A program made the position numbers and the translations under genes. Positions 24,401 to 39,730 of a stretch of 62,218 bases of DNA are shown here, piece by piece. The first letter of the stretch is position 1, and every line of letters starts with the position of its first letter. The notes beneath the pieces are model-generated. The model was not told where the DNA came from, did not search any database, and saw only the letters and a list, made by a program, of their open reading frames with translations. The stretch is from NCBI GenBank assembly GCA_022704145.1, contig JAKJGY010000002.1:1-62218 (forward strand). The letters are read 5' to 3'. Source of the stretch: Verrucomicrobiota bacterium. GTDB taxonomy: Bacteria > Verrucomicrobiota > Kiritimatiellia > RFP12 > UBA1067.

Positions 24401-27400
24401 CTAGCGCAGGTCGACCCGCACGCGCAGGAAGAGCGAGGTGTGCGCGGGCGGCTCGTAGCGGATGGCCTGGCCTGTGCCTTCGAGGTCGGTATAGCCCGGC
24501 ACGGGTGTCCAGCCGCCGGTGAGCAGGCTGGGACGGCTCTCGACCGTGTAGTAGCGTCTGAGTCCGCCGTGCTCGGGGCCGGTCGGGATGGTCTGGCAGA
24601 GGAGGGCGGGCGAGCGCGAGGGGGCTTCGAGGCCTGCGGCCAGGAAGCTGGCCGGGTCGGCCGGGTCGGTGCCGGCCTGGAATTCGGCCCAGTTGGGCAG
24701 GCCGTCGGCGTCGGTGTCGGCGAGGGCGGCGGCCTCGATGCCTGAGGCGCTGAAGCCGGGTACGGTGACGGCGAGCCACCACAGGGGGGTGCCGAAGGCG
24801 GCGGTCTCCTCGGCGCCGGGCGTACCGCCTGAGACGGCGCTGGCGACCCAGTTGGAGGGCTGGGCGTTATCCCAGCGGGGATGGAGCAGCGTGAGGGAGG
24901 GCCCGAGGCCGTCGGCCGCCGTTGGCCAAGGCGAGTTCGGGGCGTAGACGACGCGGTCGATCTCGTTGGTCTGGGCGTCCACCAGTTCGATCGCCTCGCC
25001 TGCGTTGTCGAGCGTGCCGGAGGACCAGACGCGGGCGTCGGCAATTCCGGAGGCGGAGGCGAGGGTCATACGGGCGCCGGGGGCGAGCAGCGTGCCGTAG
25101 GGGAAGCTGTAGGAGAAGCCGCTTGAGAAGCGGTAGCCGGTGAGGTCGAGCGTGGCGCCGCCGGGGTTGGTCAGCTCGACGAACTCGGGCGTGGCGCCGG
25201 CCGGATGGTAGTGGATCTCCGAAATGACGGCGTGGCCCTCGCGCCAGTCGAAGGGCACGGCGCCGAGGTCGGCGCGCGAGCCGTCGGGGTCGGCGGGCGC
25301 GGCGGGGTGTCCGGAGTCGACGGCGGCCGAGCCGGTCTGGAGGCGGAAGTTCCCTAGGCTGGGGCGTTCGAACTGGGGCTCGGCGAACAGGTTGCCGGTG
25401 CCGGGATAGGCTTCGGTGTCGCAGAGGGTGTAGGAGACGTCGAGCGTGGAGAGGGCGTCGCAGGTGAAGGGCGTGCCGGAGGCGTGCGAGACGATACAGT
25501 TGCGCACCTCGGCGCTGCCGCCGCCAGACCCCAGGTTCTTCTCATAGACCGCCACGGCGTGGGAGACGTCGCGGAAGGTGTTGTGCTCGATCAGGCCGTA
25601 GGAGCCGGCGTCCTTGATGCCGAGGCCCATGTCGACATTGCGGATGACGTTGCGGCGCACGACCGCTGTGGAGCCCTGGCCGATGGAGACGGCCTTGTCG
25701 AAGCAGCGCTCGATGAGGTTATGCTCGACCAGCAGGTCGAGCGTGCCTTCGCCGATGTCGATGGCGTCGTTGTTGTCGCCCAGGAAGTCGTGGAGGTAGT
25801 TGTTGCGGATGATACCGCCCTGGATGCCGTCGTAATCGATGGCGTCCGTGTCCACGGTGAGGTTGGCGGAGGAGAACTCGCAGCCCTCGACACGCGCGTA
25901 GGCGGCGCGTTTGATGTTGATGCCGTCGCCGATCACGCTGATGAAGATACGGCTGTTCTCGAGCACGGTCGAGGCGCCCTCCTGAACGAAAATCGGGAAA
26001 TCGGAGGCGTCGATATCAAGGCCGCGCATCAGGAGGTCTGAGCCGAAGGCTGAGACAGCGGCCTTCATGTTGATACAGTCCTTGGCCGCGAGCGTCGCAC
26101 CGCGCAGCACGACGTTTGACAGGAGGCCCATATGGTCGGCGCGGTCGAAGGCGATGCCGCCCCAGCGGTAGGGCCGGTCGGTCGCGTCGGAAAGCGCGGG
26201 GTCGGTGAAGAGGCGTGCGAGGGCGCTCGGTGTGGGGTTTGGGCCGACGCTGACGGGGGCCTCGGGGGTGCCGAGCAGAGCGAGGCGGCCTTGCACGTAG
26301 ATGCTGGCGCGCTCGGGCATCAGGATCGCGACGCCCGGTTCGGCGGTGAGGACGGTGTTGGACGGGACGGTGATGTCGCCGGTGGCGAGCCAGGGCGAGC
26401 CGGCGGCGGTGAGCGTGAGGCTGCCGTTCACGGTCGCGGGCAGCAGGCTCGCGCCGGTCGGGGCGAACACGGCGGTGACGCTCAGTGGCGTGGTGCTGTC
26501 GGGGACGAGCGTCAGCACGGGGGCGGTGTTAGTCGAGACGCTGGCGAAGGTCTGCGTGAGGTCGGCGGAGAGGTCGAAGCCGAGGTCGGTGAAGTTCGCG
26601 GAGGACTGGTGGATCTCGACGGCCAGCACATTGGTGCCCGCGACAAAAGGCGCGGAGGTCACGGCGTAGGTGTTGTAGGCGTTCTCGTGCGGCGTGGAGG
26701 AGCTGGTGATATTGGTCAGGGCGAAGGTGGTGAACGCGACGGGGCCTGCGGGCATGTTGGCGCGTACGATTTCGGTGCCGTTCAGGTAGACGATCACACC
26801 GTCGTCGTGGAGGATCTGGAGTTTGAGGGCGCTGACCGGAGCGGCGTCGCTGAGCACGACGGTGCGGCGGAAGTAGGCGGACGTGATCAGGTTTGAGGCT
26901 GCGCCGATGACGGTCGCCTCGTCGTCGTCGCCATAACCGAACTGTGCCGGGCCGGAGGGCCAGGCGGCGTCGTTGAAGGCGGCCTGGTTCCAGCCGGGGA
27001 TCTCGTTAGTCGCGACGGTATAGCGCCAGACGGAGCCGGTGGCGACCACGCTCTGTTGCCGGTTGCTGGTGACGACCCAGTGGGTGAAGGTCTGGCCGAT
27101 CTCCGGTACGGCGGTGAAGGTTACGGGAAGGCCGGCGAGGAGGGTGTTGGTGGAGCTGCTCAGGAGGGGCACGTGGTTCGCCAGGACGCGGCCGGGGCCG
27201 CCCTGGCTGAGCTGCACCTGCGCGGTCTGTCCGCCTGAGAAAGTGGCGGCCGCGTGCTGCATGGCGATGGCGGGACGCTGGCGCACGAAGGAGCGGATCG
27301 CCTCGATCCGGGAGTCCCAGGTGGTCACGGAGGGGATACCTCCTTGCGAGGCGTAGAGCGCCGAGTGAGCGATGATCTCCGAGCGGATGCGGCCGGCCTC

Positions 27401-30400
27401 TGCGTCGATGATGGGGAGTATGCGGTTGGTGCTGAAGGAGCTGTTAAGGTGGGCCATCAGGCGCTGTGCGCTGTAGGCCCGGAACTCCGCGTTGCTGAGG
27501 AGTTCGCGGAACACCTCCATGCTGGAAACCATGCTCGTCAGGCGGTTGTCGGTGACGGTGCCGAAGGCGCGGTCGAGGTCGACGAAGCACCAGCGCCAGC
27601 GGCCGCCGGGGTTGCGGTCGCGCCACCACTTGCGGTTGTGGGCCCAGGCGGTGTCGTTGACGAACACTTGGCCGGAGACGTAGTCGACAAGATCCTCGAT
27701 GTCGACCTGGCCCTTGACGTACGCATAGTGCACGGGATCGGCCATGCTGTTCGCTCCAAGGTAGGCGAGCAACGCATTCCAGGCGTCGGCGGTGCCGTGG
27801 TTAAGCAGATCGTCACTGGAGGTGCCGGCGTTCTCGAAGAAGTCGATATCGTCCAGGTTGACGCCGAAGTTCTTCACGCAGTAGACCTCGTCCATCTTCT
27901 CCTGGATATTGATCAGGCCGTAGTAGGTGCCGTTGAGGTAGCTGGCGCAGGGGCGGAAGCCCTGTACGGAGTTGTTGATCGCGCCCATGAGCATCCGCTG
28001 ACCCAAGGTGTCGCGGAGGAACGCGGAGGCCCAGTCGTCGTTACCGTTGCGCAGCACGAAACGGTCGAAGGGGCCGACCGGCTTTTCGGGGAAGAGCTGG
28101 TAGGCGATCTGGTCGGTGCCGTACTTGCCGCTGAACTTGACCGTGAAGGGCTTCTGCGGTTTCAGGAAGGTGTTGAGGCTGTAGAGGCGGAAGGCCGCAC
28201 CGGCGTGGAAGGCGGTGTTGGACGGTGTGGTGCAGAACTGGATCGTGCCCGGCACGTCGCGCTCCTTGAGGACGTTGGCGTAGATACCGGTGATCGGATC
28301 GAAGAGCAGCAGCGGGTCGATGACGAGCGAGACGACCGGCAGGTCGGGTTTGCGCTGGTTCATGAGGAAGGTGCGTGTGGCGACGGGGCCGGGATGGAGT
28401 CCGTCGGCAAAGGCACGGGCGCGCACGACGGTGGTGGTCGCGAGGGTGAAGGCGTTGGTGTAGAGCAGCGAGGCGGAGGTCGGCTGGCTGCTGTCGAGCG
28501 TATAGCGGATGGCTGAGGCGCCAGCGGAGGTGAGCGTCACGGTCGCGGGGCCTTCGAGGAAGAGCGGCTCGGCGGGGGAGATCGTGACGGCCGGGGCGCG
28601 GTGGAGGTTCTGGGCGAGCTGCGGGCCGCGGTTGGCGGCGCCTGCGGTGGCCTCGCCGAAGTGGCCCCAGGTCGCGTTTCCGTCGGGTAGGCGTCCGAGG
28701 GAGATGTCGTCTTGCTGGGGGCCGAAGGTCACACCGTCCACGAGGCTGCCGCTGGGGGTGAAGAGACCGAGCTGCTCGCCGTCGGCGGAGAGCTTGAAGT
28801 TCGCGTGATACGCACGGGTGACGAAGGTGTAGTTGGGCCAGAAGTCGCGCGTCAGGGTGAGGCCGGGCTGCGAGTCGTAGCCGTCGGCCCAGACGATCAG
28901 GTGGCCGTTGGCGGGGATGGTCGCGCCGTCGGGGAAGCGCCAGCGGAAGGGGGACTCCAGATTGTCGGAGAGGTGGTAGCCGCTGAGGTCGACGGCGTTG
29001 GTGCCTGCGTTGTAAAGCTCGACCCAGTCGCCGAAGTCGGTGAAGTCGGCGATCTCGGGGGTGGAGGTCGCGTTGCTGGCCATGAACTCGTTGATGCCGA
29101 GGAAGGCGCGGCGGAAGACGGCTGAGACCAGCGGGCTGGGCGCGAGGCCGGGCGCGAAGGCGCGCACGATCAGCTCGGCCTCGTCAGTGAGGCTGAGGGG
29201 GCCTTCGTAAAGTGCCGAGGCGGCGGTCGGCTCGGTGCCGTCGAGCGTGTAGCGCAGTACGGCTTCGGCGAGCGGACAGGTGACGGTGACGTTGAGCGTG
29301 CCGGAGAAGACGCCTCCCGGGTGGGAGAGCGCGGGCGGCGGCACGACGGCCGGATAGGCGGCGGCGTTCAGCGAGTCGGGTGAGGGGGCGGCGAGGAAGC
29401 CTGCGACGAGATCCAGCGTGCCTGTGGGGGGGCGAGAGGAGAACGCCAGCTCCGTCTGGAGCAGCAGGTCGGAACTGGTGGAGGAGTTGTTGAGGATCTG
29501 GAGGGCGAGGACATTGGTGCCGTCGTTGAGCAGGGGGAGGAAGGCGGAGAGGTTATGGTCGAGGTAAACGACGGCGGACGAGTCGCTGCGGCTGGAGGGC
29601 GCGCGCGAATTCCAGAGGGTGGGTACGGGGACGTTATTGGAAGCCACGAGCGTGCCGTTGAGCCAGGCCACGAAGCCGTCGTCAAAGCGTACGCGCAGGG
29701 TGGCCTCGAAGAGGTCGGCGCGGTCTGAAAGGAGGAAGGGGTAGCGCACGAACGCCGAGCCCTGTTTGCCGTACATGTCCGCATAGAGATCGGTCTGGAT
29801 GTAGGGCAGGTAGTCGGGATCGGTGTCGAAGCCGACGCCGTTACCGGCCGGGGTCCAGGTGCGGTCGTCAAAGCCGGGTGCGGCCCAGTCCGCGGCGAGG
29901 GCGGCGGAGGTGGCGGGCACGAGGTAGCGGCCGACCGAACCAGCGGTGACGGGGGTGTGCGTTACGACGGCCGGCGCCCAGGAGAGACGCAGCTCGGTGT
30001 TCAGGAGCAGGTCTGAGCTGGTGGTGGAACTGTTGAGCGCCTGAAGCGCGAGCACGTTGGTGCCGTCGGTCAGCAAGTGGGTGTAGGCGTCGAGCGTGAA
30101 GTCGGTGTAGGCGACGGCCAGGGTCTCGCTTCTGGAGGAGGTGGCGGCGGAGTTCCAGACGGGTGAGGACGGGGCTGCTCCGGAGGCCACTTTGACGCCG
30201 TTCAGCCAGGCCACGAAGCCGTCCTCGTACTTGAGGCGCAGCAGCACGCGGGTGATCTCGGCCGCATCGTCGAGGACAAACGTATAGCGCACAAAGGCGG
30301 AGGCCTGCTTGTTATACATCTCGGCGTAGAGGTCGGTCTGGAAGAGCGGACGGTAGAGGGGGTCGGTGTCGAAACCGATGCCGTTTCCGGCGGGCTTCCA

Positions 30401-32473
30401 GGCGCGGTCGTCAAAGGAGGCAGAAGCCCAGCCGGCGGCGAGCGAGGCGGCGTTGGTGGGAACGAGGTAACGGCCCGATGATCCGGGGCGCACGGGGGTC
30501 AGGGTTCGCGTACCGACGGCGTCGAAGCCGTAGCTCACGTCGGCCGGCAGCGCGGGGAAGGCGGGGTCGAAGCCGGACTCGAGGGTGAGGTCGGCGCGGA
30601 AGAGTGCGAGATATTCGCCAGCGGCGTCGAGCGAGAAGCTGGTGTGGAGTTCGGCGTTAGGGTCAGCCCTGTTTTTGGAGGAGGCGAAGACGAGGAGGTG
30701 GCCGTAGGGGGCGATCGAGACATCCGGAAAAGTCCAGAGCGTGGGGGTGTCAGACTGGTCGGTGAGGTGCCAGCCTTTGAGGGAGACGGTCTGGAAGGTG
30801 GTGTTATACAGCTCGATCCAGTCGGAGAAGTCGCCGTCCGCGTCGCGCAGCGTGCTGCGGTTGAGGGCCATCACCTCGCTGATCAGGATCGAGCCTGGCG
30901 GAAGGTAGAGCGAGTTGGTGGCGCCGGGTGTGGCGGTGTCGGGCGACGCGTGCCAGTTGTCAGGCGTGTCGCCGTAGGCGTTGGGGTCGGTGCGTTCCAG
31001 CGCGCCGCCCAGGCCGTCGGCGGCCAGAGGCCAGGGGAGCCGGTCGCTATAGGTGACGGCGTCGAGCACGTAGCGGCCGAGAGTGCCGTCATCCTCGACG
31101 GTGTTGGGCGCGCGCAGGCGTACCGTGTCGCCCGCGTTCCCAAGACTCCTGTCCCACGGCCCGAACACGGGGACGTTGGCCGGCACGCCGTAACTGGCGC
31201 GGAAGCCCGCAAGGTCGTTGGTGGCGGTGACCAGCAGGAACGCGCCGGGCGCGAGCGTGAGGTTGGTCGGGAAGGAGTAGCTGATGCCGCCGGTCAGGCT
31301 CCAGGTGTTGGTGGGCTCTTGGGCGTTGAAGAGCGCGACCGGCGCGCCGCTGATGTTAAGCAGCTCGACGTACTCGCAGGGCATGCGGCCGAGGGTGTTG
31401 GAGGCTGGCGGATGGTACATGATCTCGTTGATGACGACCGGGCCGACCTTAGGGCCGCTGTTGCGGGCGCCTGCACCTGCGCGGAACTCCTCCAGCGAGG
31501 CGGGCAGGCTGGCGCCGAAGGTCGGCGTGTCCAGCGTGACGAACTCGCCCGTGCCGTCGGGCCAGCGGCCGAAGGAGACGCCGTTCTTCGAGGCGTCGAA
31601 GACATACTGGTCGACATAGCGCACGAGCGAGTCCGAGGCGTCGGCTTCGGCGAGATAGAGGCCCTCTCCCTTGGCGCTTAAGGAAAACGGGACGGTTGCG
31701 GCGTTGAGCTGGTATTGGTACACGACGAGGTAGCCGAGAGGCGCAAGCGTCGTTCCGGCAGGGAACTGGTACTTCTTGCGCTGTAAGGCGTCGTCACTCA
31801 GGTACCAGCCCGCGATGCTGACGGGGTTGGTGGTGAGGTTGCGCAGCTCCACGGCATCCTCCTGCGGCGGGTCGGTGTGGGCGAGCACCTCGTTGATGAC
31901 CACATCGCGGACGAGCGGGGTGTCGGGGCCGCCTGGCGAACCGTTGAGGCGGGCGCTCGCGGCCCAGCTCGAGGGGTCGTTCGGGGAGGCGGACGGAGCG
32001 AGCAGGACGAGTGAGCTGCCGAGGCCGTCGGCGGCGAGGGGCCACGGCGCGATATCGTCGTAGGTCACGCTAAAGACGGCCTGTCCGAGCGCGTCGGCGA
32101 GGGTCACGGTCTCGCCCTCGTTACTAAGCTGGCCGCTATAGGCGCCGGGGACCAGGTTAGTGACGCCGGGGTAGAGGGCCGTGAAGGCGGCGCGGTTGAC
32201 GCACACGGCGAGATAGGAGCCTGGCCCGAGCGTGGTCGGGGTTGGGAAAGTGTAGGTGATTCCGGCGTTAAAGCGCCAGCCGCTGAGGTCGGCCGCCTGG
32301 GTCCCGGCGTTATAGACCTCGATGAACTCGTTGGTGTTGCCGCCTGGGGGATTATACATCAGCTCGCTGACCACGACCTGCGCCTGAGCAAGGCGGGTGA
32401 GGCAGAGCAACAATGCCGAGAGGGCGTGTGCTCGGAGACCGACCGATATAGAATTAGTTCTCAATTTTTCCAT
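24401..32473 (-). CDS. Giant secreted lamin-tail-domain / CotH kinase / beta-helix protein
   Basis: Signal peptide; at least five LTD starts (VVSELMY, VINEVLA, VINEIMY, LISEVMA, GINEFMA, VISEIHY); chitobiase-like FN3 (LRYTLDGTEP, IRYTLDSSQP); CotH-like core (FDRFVLRNGNDD, YLNGTYYGL..EK, WRWCFVDLD); right-handed beta-helix; DTDADG TSP3-like repeat. Start ATG 32473. Confidence 0.8.
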   Translation of the reverse strand: MEKLRTNSISVGLRAHALSALLLCLTRLAQAQVVVSELMYNPPGGNTNEFIEVYNAGTQAADLSGWRFNAGITYTFPTPTTLGPGSYLAVCVNRAAFTALYPGVTNLVPGAYSGQLSNEGETVTLADALGQAVFSVTYDDIAPWPLAADGLGSSLVLLAPSASPNDPSSWAASARLNGSPGGPDTPLVRDVVINEVLAHTDPPQEDAVELRNLTTNPVSIAGWYLSDDALQRKKYQFPAGTTLAPLGYLVVYQYQLNAATVPFSLSAKGEGLYLAEADASDSLVRYVDQYVFDASKNGVSFGRWPDGTGEFVTLDTPTFGASLPASLEEFRAGAGARNSGPKVGPVVINEIMYHPPASNTLGRMPCEYVELLNISGAPVALFNAQEPTNTWSLTGGISYSFPTNLTLAPGAFLLVTATNDLAGFRASYGVPANVPVFGPWDRSLGNAGDTVRLRAPNTVEDDGTLGRYVLDAVTYSDRLPWPLAADGLGGALERTDPNAYGDTPDNWHASPDTATPGATNSLYLPPGSILISEVMALNRSTLRDADGDFSDWIELYNTTFQTVSLKGWHLTDQSDTPTLWTFPDVSIAPYGHLLVFASSKNRADPNAELHTSFSLDAAGEYLALFRADLTLESGFDPAFPALPADVSYGFDAVGTRTLTPVRPGSSGRYLVPTNAASLAAGWASASFDDRAWKPAGNGIGFDTDPLYRPLFQTDLYAEMYNKQASAFVRYTFVLDDAAEITRVLLRLKYEDGFVAWLNGVKVASGAAPSSPVWNSAATSSRSETLAVAYTDFTLDAYTHLLTDGTNVLALQALNSSTTSSDLLLNTELRLSWAPAVVTHTPVTAGSVGRYLVPATSAALAADWAAPGFDDRTWTPAGNGVGFDTDPDYLPYIQTDLYADMYGKQGSAFVRYPFLLSDRADLFEATLRVRFDDGFVAWLNGTLVASNNVPVPTLWNSRAPSSRSDSSAVVYLDHNLSAFLPLLNDGTNVLALQILNNSSTSSDLLLQTELAFSSRPPTGTLDLVAGFLAAPSPDSLNAAAYPAVVPPPALSHPGGVFSGTLNVTVTCPLAEAVLRYTLDGTEPTAASALYEGPLSLTDEAELIVRAFAPGLAPSPLVSAVFRRAFLGINEFMASNATSTPEIADFTDFGDWVELYNAGTNAVDLSGYHLSDNLESPFRWRFPDGATIPANGHLIVWADGYDSQPGLTLTRDFWPNYTFVTRAYHANFKLSADGEQLGLFTPSGSLVDGVTFGPQQDDISLGRLPDGNATWGHFGEATAGAANRGPQLAQNLHRAPAVTISPAEPLFLEGPATVTLTSAGASAIRYTLDSSQPTSASLLYTNAFTLATTTVVRARAFADGLHPGPVATRTFLMNQRKPDLPVVSLVIDPLLLFDPITGIYANVLKERDVPGTIQFCTTPSNTAFHAGAAFRLYSLNTFLKPQKPFTVKFSGKYGTDQIAYQLFPEKPVGPFDRFVLRNGNDDWASAFLRDTLGQRMLMGAINNSVQGFRPCASYLNGTYYGLINIQEKMDEVYCVKNFGVNLDDIDFFENAGTSSDDLLNHGTADAWNALLAYLGANSMADPVHYAYVKGQVDIEDLVDYVSGQVFVNDTAWAHNRKWWRDRNPGGRWRWCFVDLDRAFGTVTDNRLTSMVSSMEVFRELLSNAEFRAYSAQRLMAHLNSSFSTNRILPIIDAEAGRIRSEIIAHSALYASQGGIPSVTTWDSRIEAIRSFVRQRPAIAMQHAAATFSGGQTAQVQLSQGGPGRVLANHVPLLSSSTNTLLAGLPVTFTAVPEIGQTFTHWVVTSNRQQSVVATGSVWRYTVATNEIPGWNQAAFNDAAWPSGPAQFGYGDDDEATVIGAASNLITSAYFRRTVVLSDAAPVSALKLQILHDDGVIVYLNGTEIVRANMPAGPVAFTTFALTNITSSSTPHENAYNTYAVTSAPFVAGTNVLAVEIHQSSANFTDLGFDLSADLTQTFASVSTNTAPVLTLVPDSTTPLSVTAVFAPTGASLLPATVNGSLTLTAAGSPWLATGDITVPSNTVLTAEPGVAILMPERASIYVQGRLALLGTPEAPVSVGPNPTPSALARLFTDPALSDATDRPYRWGGIAFDRADHMGLLSNVVLRGATLAAKDCINMKAAVSAFGSDLLMRGLDIDASDFPIFVQEGASTVLENSRIFISVIGDGINIKRAAYARVEGCEFSSANLTVDTDAIDYDGIQGGIIRNNYLHDFLGDNNDAIDIGEGTLDLLVEHNLIERCFDKAVSIGQGSTAVVRRNVIRNVDMGLGIKDAGSYGLIEHNTFRDVSHAVAVYEKNLGSGGGSAEVRNCIVSHASGTPFTCDALSTLDVSYTLCDTEAYPGTGNLFAEPQFERPSLGNFRLQTGSAAVDSGHPAAPADPDGSRADLGAVPFDWREGHAVISEIHYHPAGATPEFVELTNPGGATLDLTGYRFSSGFSYSFPYGTLLAPGARMTLASASGIADARVWSSGTLDNAGEAIELVDAQTNEIDRVVYAPNSPWPTAADGLGPSLTLLHPRWDNAQPSNWVASAVSGGTPGAEETAAFGTPLWWLAVTVPGFSASGIEAAALADTDADGLPNWAEFQAGTDPADPASFLAAGLEAPSRSPALLCQTIPTGPEHGGLRRYYTVESRPSLLTGGWTPVPGYTDLEGTGQAIRYEPPAHTSLFLRVRVDLR

Positions 32474-32679
32474 AAACTCTCCTCGTACGAAGTCGAAAGT
32501 CATGCACCGCAGAAATAAGCCTTTTGTCGTAAAGCGATCCGATGGTATATATGTGCCTCTAGTTTGTCAAGTGACTAAGTTGTAATTAATGGACGGACTC
32601 ATGGGTTGTGTGCGTAATCGGTTTTCGCAGCGAGGCTTGTCTGTTATAATGCGGCGCATTTTACCAAGAAAGGTGTGCC

Positions 32680-35600
32680 ATGTTCCAGCCAGTTTCAAAC
32701 AAGATCGACTTCCCCGTCATGGAGCGTGAGACGCTCGCCTTCTGGGATGCGCATGACACCTTCAGGAAGAGTGTCGCGCGCAATAGGGAGAAGCGGGATT
32801 ATGTCTTTTACGACGGGCCGCCCTTTGCGACAGGGCTGCCGCACTACGGCCATCTGCTGGCCGGCACGATCAAGGACATCGTGCCGCGTTACCAGACCAT
32901 GCGCGGGCATCACGTCGAGCGGCGTTTCGGCTGGGACTGCCACGGCCTGCCGATCGAGGCGTTGGCGCAGGAGGCGCTGAACGTCAGCGGCGCGCATGAG
33001 ATCCGGCAGCTCGGGATCGACACGTTCAACGAGCAGTGCCGCTCCATGGTGCTCAAGTATGTGGGCGAGTGGCGCAAGACCGTCACGCGTATGGGACGCT
33101 GGGTCGATTTCGACAATGACTACAAGACCATGGACCCCGGCTTCATGGAGAGCATCTGGTGGGTCTTCAAGCAGCTCTGGGAGCAGGGGCGTGTCTACAA
33201 GTCGTACCGCATCATGCCCTACAGTTGGAAGCTCAGCACGCCGCTCAGCAACTTTGAGGCGGGCAGCAACTACAAGGACGTGCAGGATCCTGCGGTGACG
33301 GTGCGCGCGAAGGTGCTCTCGGGCGCCGATCCCGCCTGGGGCGAGACCAGCCTGCTGGTCTGGACGACCACGCCGTGGACGCTGCCGGAGAACTTGGCGA
33401 TTTGCGCCGGTCCGGACATCGACTATGTGGTCGTGCGCGACACCGCCGGTCAGACGTGTTATGTGATGGCTGAGGCGCGTCTGTCGGCCTATTACAAAAA
33501 GCCGGAAGAGTATCAGCGTGTCGCCACGCTGAAGGGCGCCGCGCTGCGAGGCTGGACCTACGAGCCGATATTCCCTTACTTTGCAGGGCATGCCGCCGTT
33601 GGCGCGTTCCGCGTACTCAACGACGCCTTCGTGACCACCGGCGACGGCACCGGCCTCGTGCATATGGCGCCCGCCTATGGCGAGGACGATTTCCGGGTCT
33701 GCAAGGAGGCCGGGCTGACGGTCTTGGCTGACCCGCTCGACGCCGCCTGTCATTTCACCGACGCGTTGCCCGAGTACGCGGGCCGTTTCTGCAAGGAGTG
33801 CGACAAGGATCTGATCAAGCGGCTGAAGCAGGAGGGCAAGCTGGTTCACCAGACCACGATCGTGCACAGCTATCCCTTCTGCGACCGGACCGATACGCCG
33901 CTCGTCTATCGCGCGATCGAGGCCTGGTACGTGCGTGTTGAGGATCTGCACGAGCGACTGGCACGCAACAACGGGAGTGTCCACTGGATGCCGGACTACG
34001 TCGGCGACAAGCGCTTCGGCAACTGGCTCAAGGAGGCGCGCGACTGGAATATCAGCCGCAACCGCTTCTGGGGCTCCTGCATCCCCGTTTGGGTGAACGA
34101 GCGGGACGCTTCAGATACGATCTGCGTCGGCTCGGTGGCTGAGCTGGAGGCGCTTTCAGGCGTCAAGGTGACGGATCTCCATAAGCACTTTGTGGACAAG
34201 GTTGTCATTCAGCGCGACGGCAAGACCTACCGCCGCACGCCGGAGGTGCTCGACTGCTGGTTCGAGTCCGGCGCGATGCCTTACGCGCAGCACCACTACC
34301 CCTTTGAGGGGTCGGGCGTCGGGAGTGCTGACGTTTCCACGTTCTTCCCGGCAGACTTTATTGCCGAGGGGCTCGACCAGACACGCGGATGGTTCTACAC
34401 GCTGATGGTGCTGGGCACCTGCCTCTTCGACAGATCGCCGTTCAAGAACGTGGTGGTGAACGGCCTGGTGCTGGCTGAGGACGGCAAGAAGATGTCGAAG
34501 CGGCTGAAGAACTATCCTGATCCGACTCACATCCTTGACGCCTATGGCGCCGACGCGTTGCGGCTGTACCTGATCTATTCGCCGGTGGTGCGCGCCGAGA
34601 ACCTGCGCTTCTCGGAGAGCGGCGTGAAGCAGATCCTGCGCGACCTGCTGATCCCCTGGTGGAACGCCTACAGCTTCTTTGTGACCTATGCCAACGTGGA
34701 CGGCTTCCATGATCGCGCGCTGGCCCGGCCGTCGAGCCCGAATGTGCTCGACCGCTGGATCGTCAGCTCGCTCGAGACGCTGGTCAGCGACGTGACGCAG
34801 GCGATGGACACCTATGACCTGCAGCGTTCGGTGAAGCCGTTCGTGTCGTTCGTGGAGGATCTCACCAACTGGTATATCCGGCGCAGCAGGCGGCGTTTCT
34901 GGAAGTCGCAGAACGACGACGATAAGACGCACGCGTACCGTACGCTGCGCTACGTGCTGGTGCAGCTCTGCAAGGTCGCGGCGCCGTTCACGCCCTTTAT
35001 CAGCGAGGCCATCTACCGCAACCTGAAGGGCGACGGGATGCCCGATTCGGTGCATCTCTGTGACTTCCCGACAGCGGACGCGGCCGCGCGCGACGAGGCG
35101 CTGGAGGCGCGCATGGCGCTGGTGCAGACCGTAGTGCGGCTTGGGCGGCAGCTCCGTACGGAGAACGATCTTAAGGTGCGGCAGCCGCTCTCCGTGCTGC
35201 ACGTGGTCTCGTCGAAGCCTGAAGTCTTGCAGCGGCTGGAGGGCTTTGAGGAGCTGGTCACGGACGAGCTGAACGTCAAGGCGATGGCCTTCGGCTGCGA
35301 CGAGACGGCCATGGCGGACGTCTCGGTCAAGGCGGATTTCCGCAAGCTCGGCCCGAAGTTCGGCCCTCGGATGAAGGCCGTGGCGTCCGCCATCGCGGGG
35401 CTCGGCACCGCGCAGGCCGCGGCGCTGGCCGCGAGCCGGCCGGTGACGCTCGACCTGGCGGGCGAGGCGGTCGTCCTGACGGCTGAGGACGTGGTGGTGC
35501 AGCGTGCGCCGAAGGCCGGCATGGTGGTGGCCTCGGAAGGCGACGTGCTGGTCGGCATCGAGACGGCCCTGACGCCGGAGCTGATGCGGGAAGGCCTCGC

Positions 35601-35832
35601 GCGCGAGTTCGTCAGCCGCGTGCAGAACCTGCGCAAGGAGGCGGATTTCGAGGTCACGCAGCGCATCGCGGTGACGGTCGAGGCCGACGCCGAAGCGCGC
35701 GCCGCGATCGAGGCGCACGCCGACTACGTGAAGGCCGAGACCCTGTGCGAGGCGCTCGCCTTCGGCCCCTTGGCGGACGGGCTCTGCGAACTCAACGGCC
35801 ATGCCGTCAAGATCGCCGTGGCGAAGGTGTAG
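32680..35832 (+). CDS. ileS: Isoleucine--tRNA ligase (type 2)
   Basis: FYDGPPFATGLPHYGH, GWDCHGLP, WTTTPWTLP, DWNISRNRFWG, EGLDQTRGWFY, KMSKR. Long C-terminus typical of IleRS2. Confidence 0.97.
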   Translation: MFQPVSNKIDFPVMERETLAFWDAHDTFRKSVARNREKRDYVFYDGPPFATGLPHYGHLLAGTIKDIVPRYQTMRGHHVERRFGWDCHGLPIEALAQEALNVSGAHEIRQLGIDTFNEQCRSMVLKYVGEWRKTVTRMGRWVDFDNDYKTMDPGFMESIWWVFKQLWEQGRVYKSYRIMPYSWKLSTPLSNFEAGSNYKDVQDPAVTVRAKVLSGADPAWGETSLLVWTTTPWTLPENLAICAGPDIDYVVVRDTAGQTCYVMAEARLSAYYKKPEEYQRVATLKGAALRGWTYEPIFPYFAGHAAVGAFRVLNDAFVTTGDGTGLVHMAPAYGEDDFRVCKEAGLTVLADPLDAACHFTDALPEYAGRFCKECDKDLIKRLKQEGKLVHQTTIVHSYPFCDRTDTPLVYRAIEAWYVRVEDLHERLARNNGSVHWMPDYVGDKRFGNWLKEARDWNISRNRFWGSCIPVWVNERDASDTICVGSVAELEALSGVKVTDLHKHFVDKVVIQRDGKTYRRTPEVLDCWFESGAMPYAQHHYPFEGSGVGSADVSTFFPADFIAEGLDQTRGWFYTLMVLGTCLFDRSPFKNVVVNGLVLAEDGKKMSKRLKNYPDPTHILDAYGADALRLYLIYSPVVRAENLRFSESGVKQILRDLLIPWWNAYSFFVTYANVDGFHDRALARPSSPNVLDRWIVSSLETLVSDVTQAMDTYDLQRSVKPFVSFVEDLTNWYIRRSRRRFWKSQNDDDKTHAYRTLRYVLVQLCKVAAPFTPFISEAIYRNLKGDGMPDSVHLCDFPTADAAARDEALEARMALVQTVVRLGRQLRTENDLKVRQPLSVLHVVSSKPEVLQRLEGFEELVTDELNVKAMAFGCDETAMADVSVKADFRKLGPKFGPRMKAVASAIAGLGTAQAAALAASRPVTLDLAGEAVVLTAEDVVVQRAPKAGMVVASEGDVLVGIETALTPELMREGLAREFVSRVQNLRKEADFEVTQRIAVTVEADAEARAAIEAHADYVKAETLCEALAFGPLADGLCELNGHAVKIAVAKV

Positions 35833-35845
35833 AAAGGTACTCCAA

Positions 35846-36454
35846 ATGCCAGTCACAAAGAACACGCTTGTTCAAGGGGAATTCAATGCGCAAGCCGAGT
35901 TGCCTTTTGAGTTGCGACTCGATGATTTCCGTATGGCTGTACAGGATGTCTACGATTTCTTTTATGACGTGAACTCGGTTCTGTTGGCGAAGGGCCTTCG
36001 GAGACTGGATGACATGTTGCGACCAGCCATTATGTCGGGGTTATTGTCTGATATGTTGACTTCGAGTATGGCAAAACACGCTAGAGTTTTGTGCGAGAAC
36101 GCCTACTTCAATGGGCATCCGGATCTGATAGTGCGTGGTGTGTATCCGAGGAATGAGGTGAAGGCAGGAGACCATGGAATCGAAGTCAAGACCACCCGTA
36201 AATCGGGTGGTGCAGTAGACACTCACGGTGCGCGTAATCAGTGGATGTGTGTCTTTGTCTACGACGTTGACAATGATACGGAACCTGCTACAAATCGTTG
36301 TCCGATGGCGTTCACGGAAATTTATTTAGGACATGTGACGGTTGATGACTTCCGAAAGAATGCGCGAGGTGAGTTGGGTACACGGACTGCGACTTTACAT
36401 CGAGAAGGTATCGCAAAACTCAGAGGGAACTGGATATATCGTCTTCTGGCGTGA
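35846..36454 (+). CDS. Putative type II restriction endonuclease (PD-(D/E)xK)
   Basis: About 200 aa; HPDLIV...GIEVKTT; AT-richer than the flanks; convergent with a DNA methyltransferase. Confidence 0.65.
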   Translation: MPVTKNTLVQGEFNAQAELPFELRLDDFRMAVQDVYDFFYDVNSVLLAKGLRRLDDMLRPAIMSGLLSDMLTSSMAKHARVLCENAYFNGHPDLIVRGVYPRNEVKAGDHGIEVKTTRKSGGAVDTHGARNQWMCVFVYDVDNDTEPATNRCPMAFTEIYLGHVTVDDFRKNARGELGTRTATLHREGIAKLRGNWIYRLLA

Positions 36455-37621
36455 TGGTGGTACCGTCACGCTGACGGCAGGTTCGTACGCTGCAAGATTC
36501 GGGATGGCTTCGCAGGCCAACTTGAAATAGGTCTCGTCCTTCTCGACGCCCATGCTCTCGTAGCCGACCGCTTCGGCGGCGGCGAGGGTGGAGCCGGAAC
36601 CGGCGAAAGTGTCCACCACAACGCCCTTGCCGAGGGGCAGGACGGCGCGGACAATCTGCCGCAGGAAGGCCTGGGGTTTGAGACTGGGGTGAGGGGCGAG
36701 GTCGCGTTCCGCTTTGCGGGTCGGCGCGGAGGCGATCACGTCGCCGAAGGGCTTGTCCTTCTCCGGGCGGCGGAACCCGCCGGTGCCCCACTTGCGCAGG
36801 TTGTCCTGCACGCGGCCTTCGATGGGCTTGCGGTAGACCAGCCACGGCTCCCACATTGAGCGAGGCATGACGCTGATCTCGGAGAACTCCTCGTGCGCGG
36901 CCTTGGGGCGGTCGCCGCCGCGCATGGTCATGGTCAGCCGGATGATCTCACCCCGGCGCTCAAGACCCGCGCTGGCCAGCGCATCCGACACGAGGTAGGA
37001 GAGCAGCGGATTGGACGCAACGACCACGTTCGCACCCGGGACGAGTTTGGGCAACAGCAAACGGCCCCATTCCGTGAAGAACGTGCGCAGGTCGTGGAGT
37101 TGGCTGGGCGAGAGGACGGTGAAACGGGGAAGCGGGGAACGAACGTGACCGTCGAAGGAGGGCGGTATACGCCAAACGCCGCCACGCCCGCCGCGTAGTT
37201 TAGCGACCTGTTCCTCTGTGTATTCGAAGAGCCCGTAGGGCGGATCTGTGACTACCGCATGCAGGCTGTTGGCAGCTTGCAAGGCCAGCCAGTTGAAGCA
37301 GTCCATGTTGAACAAAGAAGCGCCGCTACCGACTTTATTTGAGGCAAACCGCCCGGCTTTTGGGGGCTCAGGCTCAACCGGTTCAATGAGTTCCGCTTGA
37401 ATATACGCGCAGGCGTAGAAACCGCGCGCCTCTCGCACAAAGAATTCAGGCGTGTTCAGTCTTAGATAGGACCGGATAGAAGACGTTGGAACCTCGCCGA
37501 GACGCTGTTTAACGTATGCGGCGATTTCCTTTACAGAAAGCGGGCGATGTGCGTGTTTGACGACATCCATAATGGCATCTCTGACTCGCCCCGGCGGCCT
37601 TCTGTTCTGTGCATATGACAT
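36395..37621 (-). CDS. Beta-class amino (N6/N4) DNA methyltransferase with N-terminal HTH-like domain
   Basis: Motif IV DPPY precedes HPSLKP and motif I DTFAGSGST. N-terminus VRDAIMDVVKHAHRPLSVKEIAAYV..SSIRSYL resembles a winged HTH. Confidence 0.9.
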   Translation of the reverse strand: MSYAQNRRPPGRVRDAIMDVVKHAHRPLSVKEIAAYVKQRLGEVPTSSIRSYLRLNTPEFFVREARGFYACAYIQAELIEPVEPEPPKAGRFASNKVGSGASLFNMDCFNWLALQAANSLHAVVTDPPYGLFEYTEEQVAKLRGGRGGVWRIPPSFDGHVRSPLPRFTVLSPSQLHDLRTFFTEWGRLLLPKLVPGANVVVASNPLLSYLVSDALASAGLERRGEIIRLTMTMRGGDRPKAAHEEFSEISVMPRSMWEPWLVYRKPIEGRVQDNLRKWGTGGFRRPEKDKPFGDVIASAPTRKAERDLAPHPSLKPQAFLRQIVRAVLPLGKGVVVDTFAGSGSTLAAAEAVGYESMGVEKDETYFKLACEAIPNLAAYEPAVSVTVPPSRQKTIYPVPSEFCDTFSM

Positions 37622-37656
37622 GTTCCGATAATAGACGTCTGGACGTCTTTTGTCAA
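37622..37656 (-). promoter_or_regulatory. Leaderless MTase promoter with tandem GACGTC sites in the spacer
   Basis: TTGACA (37656-37651)-N17-TATTAT (37633-37628)-6 nt-ATG; AGACGTCT/GGACGTCT at 37633-37648. Confidence 0.75.
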
Positions 37657-37717
37657 TGTGCATTTAAATTTCTTAGGGGAGATGCGCAAGAATGATGTTA
37701 CGGATTAGCGCGCAAGG

Positions 37718-39730
37718 TTACGGCGTGGTGGCGGCGAAAAGTTTCAGCTCCTGGACGTGCACGGCGGGGTTGGCGCTGTTCTTGAGGACGGTCAGGCGGG
37801 CTTGGCGCGTCGGGGTCGGCGGGAAGTCGATCCTGAGCCCGTCGGCTGTAGCGGGCTTGGGGCTGTCGGTGTTGCCGGCGACCTGCTTCCAGGATTTGCC
37901 ATCCTCGGACAGTTCCAGCGTGAAGGTGTAGGTGCGGCCGTCGGCGTGGTAGAAGGTCACATGCAGGGCGTTGAGGGTCTGCACGGCGCCCAGGTCGATG
38001 GTGGCGCGGGCGGGCGAGCGGGCGCCGTACCAGGCCTTTTCCAGCGTGCCGTCGGTGAGGTGCGCGGGGACGTTACTGCCTTCGGCGGGGACGTCGGCGG
38101 TGACGGGGCGGCCGAGGGCCACGTTCGTCTCGGCCTTAAAGAGGTCGTCGAGCGCTTTGCGGCGGGCCTCGTCGGTCACCCCGGGCCTGAGAGTCTGCCA
38201 CAGCTTGAAGACGGCCTTCTTGTCGGCGTCCGGCTCACCCAGCTTCTTGGCGAGGCCGCGCAGGGCGAGGGCCTGGTGCTTGGCTTGGCCGGAGGTGGCG
38301 GCCAGGCGCAGGAGGGCAGGGGTGGAGCTTGCGTCGGGCCAGGTGGAGAGGGCGCGGAGGGCGGCCGTGACGATGTCGGCGTTGGCGGAGGCACAGGCCG
38401 CGTCGACGGCCTTGAGCAGCGCTTCGCCGCCGAGGCGGCCTGCGGTTTCAAGCGCGACCGCCTTCTGGGTGTCGGGGGCGTTCTGTAGGGCCTTGAGCAG
38501 GGCGGCCGCATAGGCGCCGGAGGTGTCGCGCCGGGCTGCGGCGGCGAGGGTGGTCTGGGCTTCGGGCGTCACGCGGCCTGCGGTGGCCAGCAGCTTTGCG
38601 GTCAGGCGTTCGGCGTGGCTGCTGTCGGCGATCTCGCGCAGCAGGCGGTAGCCGGCGATGACGGCCTCCTCGTCGGACGCGTCGAGCGCGGCCAGGCCGA
38701 GCGGCGCGGCTTCGGCGATGCGCCGCTCCTTAATCAGCTCGAGGGCGACCTTTTTGCCGGTCTCGCTGAAGGTCTCGTACGTCTGGGTGAGGGCTTTCCG
38801 GATGAGGGGGGTCTTGAGCTGGCGGAGGCTATCGCGCGCGAGCGTCTGACGGTTAGCGGGCAAACCGCTGAGCAGGGCGGGGATACGTGCCGCGAACGCG
38901 TCGGGATCGAGGCGGAGCAGCGCGAGATGGGCGGCGGCCGCGACGGTGTCGTCGGCGTCCGCGAGGCAGGCGGCGACGGCGGCGCAGGCGGAGGCGTCGC
39001 CGCGGCTGGCGAGCATGTCGAGCAGCATGGTCTTGCGCACGGGGTCGGCGACGGCCGGCAGCTTGGCGGCCCACAGGGCGGTCTCCGCTTGGCCGCCAGC
39101 GGTACGGGCGTGGGCGAGTGCCACGCCGGCGAGGGCGGTGTCCGGGCCGTCGAAGACTTGGACGAGGCGGGGGGTGAGGGCTTTGGGAGCGAGGGCGGCC
39201 AGCTCGCGGTTAAGGGCTGAGCAGGTCGTGCCTTTAGCGGGGGCGGCTTTCGAGGAACGGTCGTCGGTGACGGCCAGGACGGTCAGGGTAGCGAGGGCGG
39301 CGACGCCCGGTTTGTCGGACTTCTCGAACGCGCGCAGGGCGGTTGCCTGCTCGGGCAGTCCGCACCAGCGGAGCTGGTCGAGGAAGAAACAGGTGACGTC
39401 GCCTGCGGTTGCGCGCTGTGCGGCCGAGAGCAGCGCGGCGGCATAGGCCTTGCGGGCATGGGCGTTCGCCGTCAGCATCACGGCCTGGGAGAGTGCGGCG
39501 ATCCGCGTGCTGGCCACAGGGTCGGACTCGCCGTCAGTTCGGATCTCGGCGAAAAGCTTCTCGAAGGCGGGCGCGCCTTGCTTGAGCGTGTCGGCGAGCG
39601 TGGCGGCCGTAAGGGTCGCGAGGGCCTCCTTATTCTTTTCGGCCCATTGCGCGGCGGTCTCCTGCGCGGTGGCGCAGGAGGCGAGCAGGAGGGGCAGGAG
39701 CAAGGCGAGGCGGGTCAGGGTAAGTCGCAT
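37718..39730 (-). CDS. HEAT-repeat lipoprotein with C-terminal F5/8 type C (discoidin/CBM32-like) domain
   Basis: Lipobox LLASC; Ala/Leu-rich helical repeats; NVALGRPVTA..LTDG..IDLG..LELSEDGKSW..ARLTVL..ELKLF. Confidence 0.75.
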   Translation of the reverse strand: MRLTLTRLALLLPLLLASCATAQETAAQWAEKNKEALATLTAATLADTLKQGAPAFEKLFAEIRTDGESDPVASTRIAALSQAVMLTANAHARKAYAAALLSAAQRATAGDVTCFFLDQLRWCGLPEQATALRAFEKSDKPGVAALATLTVLAVTDDRSSKAAPAKGTTCSALNRELAALAPKALTPRLVQVFDGPDTALAGVALAHARTAGGQAETALWAAKLPAVADPVRKTMLLDMLASRGDASACAAVAACLADADDTVAAAAHLALLRLDPDAFAARIPALLSGLPANRQTLARDSLRQLKTPLIRKALTQTYETFSETGKKVALELIKERRIAEAAPLGLAALDASDEEAVIAGYRLLREIADSSHAERLTAKLLATAGRVTPEAQTTLAAAARRDTSGAYAAALLKALQNAPDTQKAVALETAGRLGGEALLKAVDAACASANADIVTAALRALSTWPDASSTPALLRLAATSGQAKHQALALRGLAKKLGEPDADKKAVFKLWQTLRPGVTDEARRKALDDLFKAETNVALGRPVTADVPAEGSNVPAHLTDGTLEKAWYGARSPARATIDLGAVQTLNALHVTFYHADGRTYTFTLELSEDGKSWKQVAGNTDSPKPATADGLRIDFPPTPTRQARLTVLKNSANPAVHVQELKLFAATTP

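Follow-up and report, generated by a model that had tools for sequence, protein, structure and literature searches.

Paired GACGTC boxes in the promoter of a winged-helix methyltransferase point to putative autorepression in a widespread Type II restriction-modification family

The stretch of DNA analysed here, referred to as the window, comprises 62,218 nucleotides (nt) of a Verrucomicrobiota bacterium of the Kiritimatiellia (contig JAKJGY010000002.1 of assembly GCA_022704145.1) and harbours a small restriction-modification (R-M) islet consisting of the genes of a DNA methyltransferase (M) and of a candidate restriction endonuclease (R). The promoter of the methyltransferase gene contains two tandem GACGTC hexamers in its spacer, and the enzyme itself carries an N-terminal winged-helix domain. 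This domain probably binds both hexamers (boxes) and represses the M promoter, which would represent a putative autorepression of the methyltransferase.

The methyltransferase promoter and its GACGTC boxes

Related loci were collected by a scan of one genome per species, which yielded 77 loci from many phyla, all of them in metagenome-assembled genomes. The conservation values refer to the 70 loci whose contig holds the 5' end of M, the window included. The following features were assigned to the promoter and the methyltransferase of the window:

37651..37656, minus strand: -35 hexamer TTGACA of the M promoter, from the promoter scan; TTGAC(A) kept in 58-66 of the 70 loci
between the -35 and -10 hexamers, minus strand: 17-nt spacer AAAGACGTCCAGACGTC, read from the sequence
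37642..37647, minus strand: GACGTC box 1, 3 nt past the -35 hexamer; 69-70 of the 70 loci identical per position
37634..37639, minus strand: GACGTC box 2, abutting the -10 hexamer; 66-70 of the 70 loci identical per position
37628..37633, minus strand: -10 hexamer TATTAT, from the promoter scan; TAnnnT kept in 56-64 of the 70 loci
37619..37621, minus strand: start codon ATG of M, 6 nt past the -10 hexamer, pointing to a leaderless or nearly leaderless mRNA
36395..37621, minus strand: gene of the DNA methyltransferase M, 408 amino acids (aa), beta-class amino-methyltransferase according to Pfam N6_N4_Mtase
37397..37594, minus strand: winged-helix (HARE-HTH-like) domain of M, residues ~10-75, from alignment, model and Foldseek
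37448..37483, minus strand: most conserved stretch of the domain, SSIRSYLRLNTP, residues 47-58, from the alignment

Read on the minus strand, these elements follow one another as TTGACA-AAA-GACGTC-CA-GACGTC-TATTAT-CGGAAC-ATG, with 8 bp from the start of one box to the start of the other. An earlier note on this DNA had described two tandem GACGTC hexamers filling the 17-bp spacer of a TTGACA/TATTAT promoter, and this description was confirmed exactly. It agrees with the sigma-70 consensus at 11 of the 12 positions, and no other sigma-70-like promoter was found between 35500 and 37900.

The single pair is not significant when taken alone, since GACGTC-NN-GACGTC was found once in the genome of 4.57 Mb and about 0.75 occurrences are expected from the density of the site, which is present in 42 copies in the window (32 expected) and in 1850 copies genome-wide. 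Another such pair, detected in a Chloroflexota chromosome, is embedded in a long open reading frame (ORF) with no promoter-like context and probably arose by chance.

The pair is regarded as real because of its conservation. Both hexamers keep a single register in all 70 loci, box 1 lying 3 nt past the -35 hexamer and box 2 abutting the -10 hexamer; these loci span Kiritimatiellia, Lentisphaerae, Verrucomicrobia, Planctomycetota, Chloroflexota, Acidobacteriota, Proteobacteria, Nitrospirae and other groups. The earlier interpretation of the boxes as a regulatory element is thus borne out. The inner ACGT of the boxes is invariant throughout and 66-69 loci retain the outer G/C, making the boxes better conserved than the -35 and -10 hexamers. 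The variants AACGTC, GACGTT and AACGTT, which occur in L030, L033, L035, L036 and L071, are all transitions of the outer base pair, and the 2-nt gap between the boxes is variable, being mostly a pyrimidine followed by a purine (Y-R).

In 63 of the 70 loci the distance from the -10 hexamer to the first start codon in frame is 5-10 nt. Based on this distance, a leaderless M mRNA, already proposed in the earlier note for the window, appears well supported across the family; L063 (Phycisphaeraceae) alone has a 24-nt leader with AAGGAG. The boxes are also kept in nine loci in which R was not detected, which argues that they serve the expression of M.

The methyltransferase and its winged-helix domain

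M matches Pfam N6_N4_Mtase with 55.1 bits (cut-off 26.7). In its translation the motif DPPY (residue 126, 37235-37246) lies ahead of FAGSGST (residue 339, 36587-36607), and this order, motif IV (D/S)PP(Y/F) before motif I FxGxG, is that of the beta class. The sequence matches in the PDB include CcrM, RsrI, DpnA and MboIIA, and the 119 closest database clusters, the assembly's own call excluded, are 68-86% identical and belong to many phyla. A length of 408 aa is supported by 28 homologues, in which the N-terminus aligns from the methionine at ATG 37621. For annotators the start is ambiguous, the candidates being ATG 37663, Met18 and the homologue-supported ATG 37621: the longest frame (422 aa, from ATG 37663) begins inside the promoter, and the assembly's own call (P0122) has 391 aa, the length expected for a start at Met18.

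The helix-turn-helix (HTH)-like domain that had been suspected at the N-terminus of M proved to be a real winged helix. Its model shows an H-b-H-H-b-b topology (predicted local distance difference test, pLDDT, 78.5), and Foldseek matched it (probability 1.0, template modelling (TM) score ~0.65) with the DNA-binding domains of Rv1846c (BlaI-like), Fur, Rok and IclR, all of them winged helices. According to the Pfam search 17 of the 28 family members match HARE-HTH (PF05066) below the cut-off (best E 8.5e-5); the copy of the window gave no such match and showed weak matches to HTH_12 and DUF4777 only. In a search of 1.8 billion representative proteins the domain was almost confined to this M family, and almost no fusions of the winged helix to other enzymes were found.

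The stretch SSIRSYLRLNTP corresponds to the family consensus SS(I/V)RSYLRLNTP, in which S47, S48 and R50-P58 are invariant among the 28 aligned homologues. It covers helix three together with the beginning of the wing and, according to the model, likely represents the recognition helix and wing of the domain.

Association of the boxes with the winged helix in distant relatives

The GACGTC pair is also kept in plasmid relatives of Klebsiella pneumoniae (ColE1-type), Gordonia, Rhizobium, Iamia and Mycobacterium avium, the R proteins of Iamia and M. avium being 45% and 34% identical to that of the window, respectively. In the M. avium plasmid pP4-4a (L082, 1130-3364) the winged helix is encoded by a free-standing ORF of 74 aa (1209-1430), the stop codon of which overlaps the GTG start codon of M (GTGA), and M and R have the same direction. 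The GACGTC pair is located ~65 nt upstream of the winged-helix ORF, the leader of which contains GAAGGAG. Since the boxes precede the separate winged-helix ORF in M. avium, they appear to go with the winged helix and not with the catalytic core. The nuclease of this plasmid has a C-terminal extension of 100 aa; the presence of a winged-helix-like tail in this nuclease was considered and remained unconfirmed (hhalign probability 0.2).

The orphan M cores of L062, L066 and L070 (72-81% identity) have neither the winged helix nor the boxes. The same applies to the M cores of the relatives G042 and G029 (~50% identity; L091, 1519-3459, and L092, 2421-4337), which are paired divergently with a protein of 300-307 aa in which an Xre-type HTH is joined to a PD...ExK nuclease. 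Their intergenic region of 24-60 bp holds the C-box-like palindrome GACTATAGTC.

In the Klebsiella pneumoniae plasmid pCol4401-L117 (L079, 2602-4400), a mobilisable ColE1-type plasmid of 4.9 kb, the -35 hexamer (TTGACG) overlaps box 1 and the leader comprises ~30 nt. A third, isolated GACGTC is located 22 bp upstream within this AT-rich promoter. The same plasmid type was observed in Citrobacter, Raoultella and one Pseudomonas record; its carriers include clinical Enterobacteriaceae, and R is annotated there as a hypothetical protein.

The candidate nuclease and the setting of the islet

The remaining features of the islet are:

35846..36454, plus strand: candidate restriction endonuclease R, 202 aa, PD-(D/E)XK type, from ORF, motif and model
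36119..36124, plus strand: R motif P92-D93, from the translation
36182..36190, plus strand: R motif E113-V-K115, from the translation
36395..36454, both strands: tail-to-tail overlap of the R and M reading frames, 60 nt, from the ORF coordinates
35830..35848, plus strand: left edge of the islet, with the ileS stop codon at 35830-35832 and the R start codon at 35846 coming 13 nt later

P92, D93, E113 and K115 of R are invariant in 30 homologues. The AlphaFold model of R (pLDDT 89.5) gave EcoRV, BglI, SfiI and HincII as the best folds in the PDB, all of them being weak hits (E 0.01-1, TM 0.3-0.43), and no sequence match was obtained in Pfam, NCBIfam or the PDB. R is matched by at least 8000 database clusters, the best 120 of which are 73-93% identical. 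Among the 240 homologues listed for the two proteins no informative names were detected, and there were no phage matches. In the literature we found no paper on this R-M family. Based on the motif and the model, R is read as a candidate restriction endonuclease.

The islet (35846-37700) has a length of 1.85 kb and a content of guanine plus cytosine (GC) of 0.47-0.55 at both ends versus ~0.68 genome-wide, the GC content dropping at the left edge from ~0.71 to ~0.49. Its two genes are arranged tail-to-tail, R on the plus strand (35846-36454) and M on the minus strand (37621-36395). In most related loci an R homologue adjoins M and the two genes are convergent with an overlap of 4-90 nt; where a near-full-length copy of R is present, its orientation to M was convergent in every one of 52 loci. 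No terminator-like site was found in 35500-37900, including the region between the convergent genes. The earlier note had read the islet as an R-M island, and an assignment to Type II agrees with the SAM-binding and catalytic motifs of M and with the adjacent candidate nuclease gene that encodes a catalytic motif. The ORF list of the islet (35846-37700) contains no small HTH ORF and hence no separate Xre-type C gene, as the earlier note had stated for the C protein. The islet is probably an orthodox two-gene Type II R-M cassette that moves between phyla.

Inside the islet the GC content is uneven. The low values (0.47-0.55) were observed in the R gene (35850-36450) and in the 5' third of M (37250-37700), and the middle and 3' part of M (36500-37200) has host-like values of 0.65-0.70, which could be due to partial amelioration or to a recombinant origin.

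The ileS gene (32680-35832) is located immediately ahead of the islet. The junction that places R right behind ileS is common to the window, L001, L002, L003 and L075, which represent several genera of the family; the ileS genes of these loci are 79-85% identical and the flank on the promoter side differs. This junction suggests a long vertical residence or an insertion hot spot, together with expression of the nuclease by read-through from ileS. No recognisable R promoter was detected in the scan of 35500-37900, nor was a conserved element found upstream of R across the related loci. Read-through is presumed since R starts just past the ileS stop codon without a visible promoter. According to the ORF list, an ORF of 2700 aa with many repeated modules (24401-32503, minus strand) is located just upstream of ileS.

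GACGTC as the potential recognition sequence

The earlier note had furthermore claimed that the system recognises GACGTC. The chances that GACGTC is the sequence methylated and cut by the system appear about even: the palindromic boxes fit a Type II target, whereas the genome statistics give no backing.

Both boxes are perfect palindromes of 6 bp with conservation at every position; an arbitrary 6-bp half-site has a chance of 1 in 64 of being one. This palindromy counts for GACGTC as target because a Type II enzyme requires it and a single winged helix does not. The EcoRV-like branch of nucleases holds enzymes that leave blunt ends or 3' overhangs, and ZraI and AatII cut in those ways; the weak likeness of the R model to EcoRV, BglI, SfiI and HincII may therefore count weakly for this target. 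GACGTC also contains an adenine, consistent with an enzyme of the DPPY type, and the product of M.AatII is G(m6A)CGTC (PMC3287169). R itself is probably not a homologue of AatII since it has an obvious PD...ExK motif and, as of 2008, no fold had been assigned to the nuclease family of AatII (PMC2441816). The reports on GACGTC methylomes found in the literature concern other enzymes.

No avoidance of GACGTC was detected: the ratio of observed to expected copies (O/E) is 0.89 for the genome of the window, and five further hosts gave values of 0.74-1.00. The counts were likewise ordinary in three Chloroflexota chromosomes, and among 41 relatives carriers and non-carriers did not differ (p = 0.53). 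This holds despite the islet having stayed behind ileS across several genera, over a divergence of ileS to 80-85% identity. However, site avoidance is not universal in hosts of R-M systems, so that its absence is weak evidence. When the palindromes in 121 cassette genes were compared with codon-shuffled controls, none stood out by its depletion; GACGTC reached z = -3.0 like many others, and ATGCAT, which is missing from the cassette genes (0 versus 12 in the Markov model), reached a z of only -2.2 against the codon shuffle.

One other hexamer, CAGCTG, is extremely rare in this genome (70 copies versus 2349 expected, O/E 0.03); as the target it would make the system a PvuII isoschizomer. Its O/E is 0.02-0.16 in five other hosts (G045, G057, G080, G085, G092), and no other hexamer palindrome was depleted in every one of the six sampled hosts, which had been picked for low CAGCTG counts. 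In addition, the CAGCTG/GTCGAC ratio was at most 0.5 in all 7 carriers among the 41 relatives (Mann-Whitney p = 0.007), and a Pfam search revealed no PvuII-family nuclease in 26 hosts, although this is a weak negative as the control genomes likewise gave none. On the other hand, the clade around G085 comprises seven strongly depleted genomes without the system and three undepleted carriers (p = 0.38), normal CAGCTG counts occur in at least 10 hosts whose R and M are intact, and the most depleted hosts include some in which no R was detected near M. Based on the mismatch in the G085 clade, the depletion, which is strong in about one third of 50 hosts from many phyla, seems to be a widespread lineage trait with another cause. 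CAGCTG was thus dropped as a candidate, and it is very improbable that it is the target.

CAGCTG is likewise almost absent from ~30% of the genomes of two unrelated clades, the relatives concerned including G097, G099, G106, G112 and G118. GAGCTC is also nearly absent, in this genome only (O/E 0.065).

Putative autorepression and alternative explanations

A site between the -35 and the -10 hexamer has the position of a repressor site. From the anatomy and conservation of the promoter, the fold of the domain and its linkage with the boxes we infer that M is transcribed as a leaderless mRNA from the near-consensus sigma-70 promoter and that the spacer hexamers are its operator. Accumulated M would bind the hexamers via the winged helix, probably with one domain per hexamer and the enzyme as a dimer, and bound M would block the RNA polymerase, allowing the enzyme to set its own level. 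Since the M promoter fires at the convergent R gene without a terminator between them, repression may also time the expression of R. Early transcription from the unrepressed M promoter would run antisense into R and hamper its expression by collision or transcript pairing, and later repression would free R, giving methylation a head start in a newly entered cell. Precedents have been described both for methyltransferases repressing their own promoter via an N-terminal HTH and for promoters governed by their own methylated sites, and the antisense control of EcoRI follows a similar logic (PMC3874152).

Several points weigh against this autorepression. Two palindromic hexamers 8 bp apart are atypical as the operator of a winged-helix dimer, and repression could instead come about through binding of the catalytic domain to its target sequence, or by methylation only. 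The joint loss of winged helix and boxes in L062, L066 and L070 could reflect a single 5' deletion and is hence weak evidence of linkage. The effect on R expression is purely one that we infer, and R in the window, as well as in L001-L003 and L075, probably depends on read-through from ileS.

The earlier note had favoured a methylation switch. In its pure form, as in CfrBI, GACGTC would be the target and four N6-methyladenines in the spacer would weaken the promoter directly, with the winged helix serving some other purpose, for instance target search or dimerisation. Such a switch would be in line with the perfect palindromy of both boxes at all six positions, which a Type II enzyme needs and an HTH monomer does not, with the third GACGTC 22 bp upstream in the promoter of the Klebsiella plasmid and with the adenine methylase suggested by DPPY, M.AatII modifying the same sequence (PMC3287169); CfrBI and LlaDII provide precedents (PMC3874152). 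However, the boxes co-occur with the winged helix even where it is a separate ORF and are absent from the 72-81% identical cores that lack it, and the hosts do not avoid GACGTC. Furthermore, RNA polymerase contacts few specific bases in a promoter spacer, and only a small effect is therefore to be expected from methylation alone. Taking the missing avoidance and the cores lacking both winged helix and boxes into account, a pure switch seems quite improbable, and repression by the winged helix of M is the likelier mechanism; one combining the two is possible.

Alternatively, the boxes may just be the site of the winged helix, as in the SsoII type, and the true target may be another sequence; we regard this as a serious possibility, if somewhat short of an even chance. 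In SsoII, Ecl18kI, EcoRII, MspI and ScrFI the operator is not known to be the recognition site, and boxes that travel with the winged helix, together with unremarkable GACGTC counts despite the long residence behind ileS (O/E 0.89 and 0.74-1.00; p = 0.53), would be expected in the same way here. The probable lack of homology between R and AatII points in the same direction (PMC2441816). Against it stand the 1-in-64 chance of such a palindrome with both halves fully conserved, the weakness of absent site avoidance as evidence, and the fact that no alternative target emerged, CAGCTG not being tied to the system and no palindrome of the cassette standing out.

The boxes could also be the system's own target with the winged helix reading their methylation, in that it binds and shuts the promoter only when both GACGTC carry N6-methyladenine, a scenario that we consider unlikely. 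If it were true, the promoter would report complete self-methylation, and restriction would be licensed only after the chromosome is protected, since transcription from the M promoter runs antisense through R. A methyl-reading repressor domain would then be built into an amino-methyltransferase, in a highly widespread and uncharacterised Type II family.

Comparison with known restriction-modification systems

The system shares with SsoII, Ecl18kI, EcoRII, MspI and ScrFI the N-terminal DNA-binding domain on M and the lack of a separate C protein (PMC3874152). The logic of the SsoII type would also be the same, with M repressing its own promoter via an overlapping operator and this repression being coupled to the release of R. 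However, SsoII-type enzymes combine a C5-cytosine core with a classical HTH and their divergent genes share an intergenic region, whereas here a beta-class amino-methyltransferase is combined with a HARE-HTH-like winged helix and the genes are convergent with a 60-nt overlap. Furthermore, the putative operator fills the promoter spacer here, the mRNA is predicted to be leaderless and the boxes are two short perfect palindromes. In its proposed working the system thus is like the SsoII-type self-repressing methyltransferases, but it has neither their C5 core nor their divergent genes.

LlaJI is reportedly an operon with two methyltransferases, two R subunits and the asymmetric site GACGC, in which M1.LlaJI is said to repress at two target sites in its promoter, with methylation of the sites affecting binding. 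A promoter holding a short site twice is common to both systems, and repression by a methyltransferase would be so too; they differ in enzyme class and gene organisation and show no sequence relation. CfrBI and LlaDII possibly share with our system a palindromic own target in the M promoter and a feedback by methylation (PMC3874152; bioRxiv 10.64898/2025.12.04.692298). CfrBI differs in having one site shared by divergent promoters and an enzyme without DNA-binding domain, in contrast to the two spacer sites and the winged helix found here. A CfrBI-, LlaDII- or LlaJI-like working may come in addition if GACGTC is the target.

Systems with C proteins (PvuII, AhdI, Esp1396I, Kpn2I) likewise use a small HTH regulator at palindromic promoter boxes, which delays R with respect to M, and the M. 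avium relative resembles them in having its winged helix as a separate small ORF. However, C proteins are activator-repressors with an Xre-type HTH that are co-transcribed with R and bind C-boxes of the form GACT...AGTC, whereas the winged helix described here is fused to or coupled with M and would act in the M promoter. The system is therefore not a C-protein system; a true C-box-like system with a related M core is represented by the relatives G042 and G029.

AatII and ZraI possibly have the same recognition sequence, GACGTC, and M.AatII is also an amino-methyltransferase; with ~331 aa, as estimated from plasmid sizes, it probably lacks the winged helix (PMC3287169). Winged helices that read N6-methyladenine are known from DpnI, HhiV4I and their relatives, where they are fused to R-M enzymes; some of them recognise methylated adenine in double-stranded DNA and need no base flipping for this (PMC11037411). 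In DpnI, HhiV4I and their relatives they form part of the nuclease of a modification-dependent system and recognise G(m6A)TC when it is fully methylated, whereas the domain described here is located on a methyltransferase and GACGTC would place two adenines 3 bp apart.

Significance

Self-repressing methyltransferases and methylation-sensitive R-M promoters are known already. To our knowledge, the self-repressing methyltransferases studied so far are all C5 enzymes with divergent genes. The present family combines a beta-class, adenine-type enzyme with a HARE-HTH-like winged helix, a putative operator in the spacer of a leaderless consensus promoter and convergent, overlapping genes without terminator. 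New here are the split-gene form of M. avium, the folds of R and of the domain, the residence linked to ileS, the negative tests for avoidance and the rejection of CAGCTG.

The specificity prediction GACGTC is falsifiable, although the present genome statistics do not support it. On this family it could furthermore be tested sharply whether the winged helix of a methyltransferase recognises the sequence of the DNA, its methylation or both. With at least 8000 matching protein clusters (the best 120 at least 68% identical) from many phyla the family is very common, and for this reason simple experiments on it would annotate thousands of genes.

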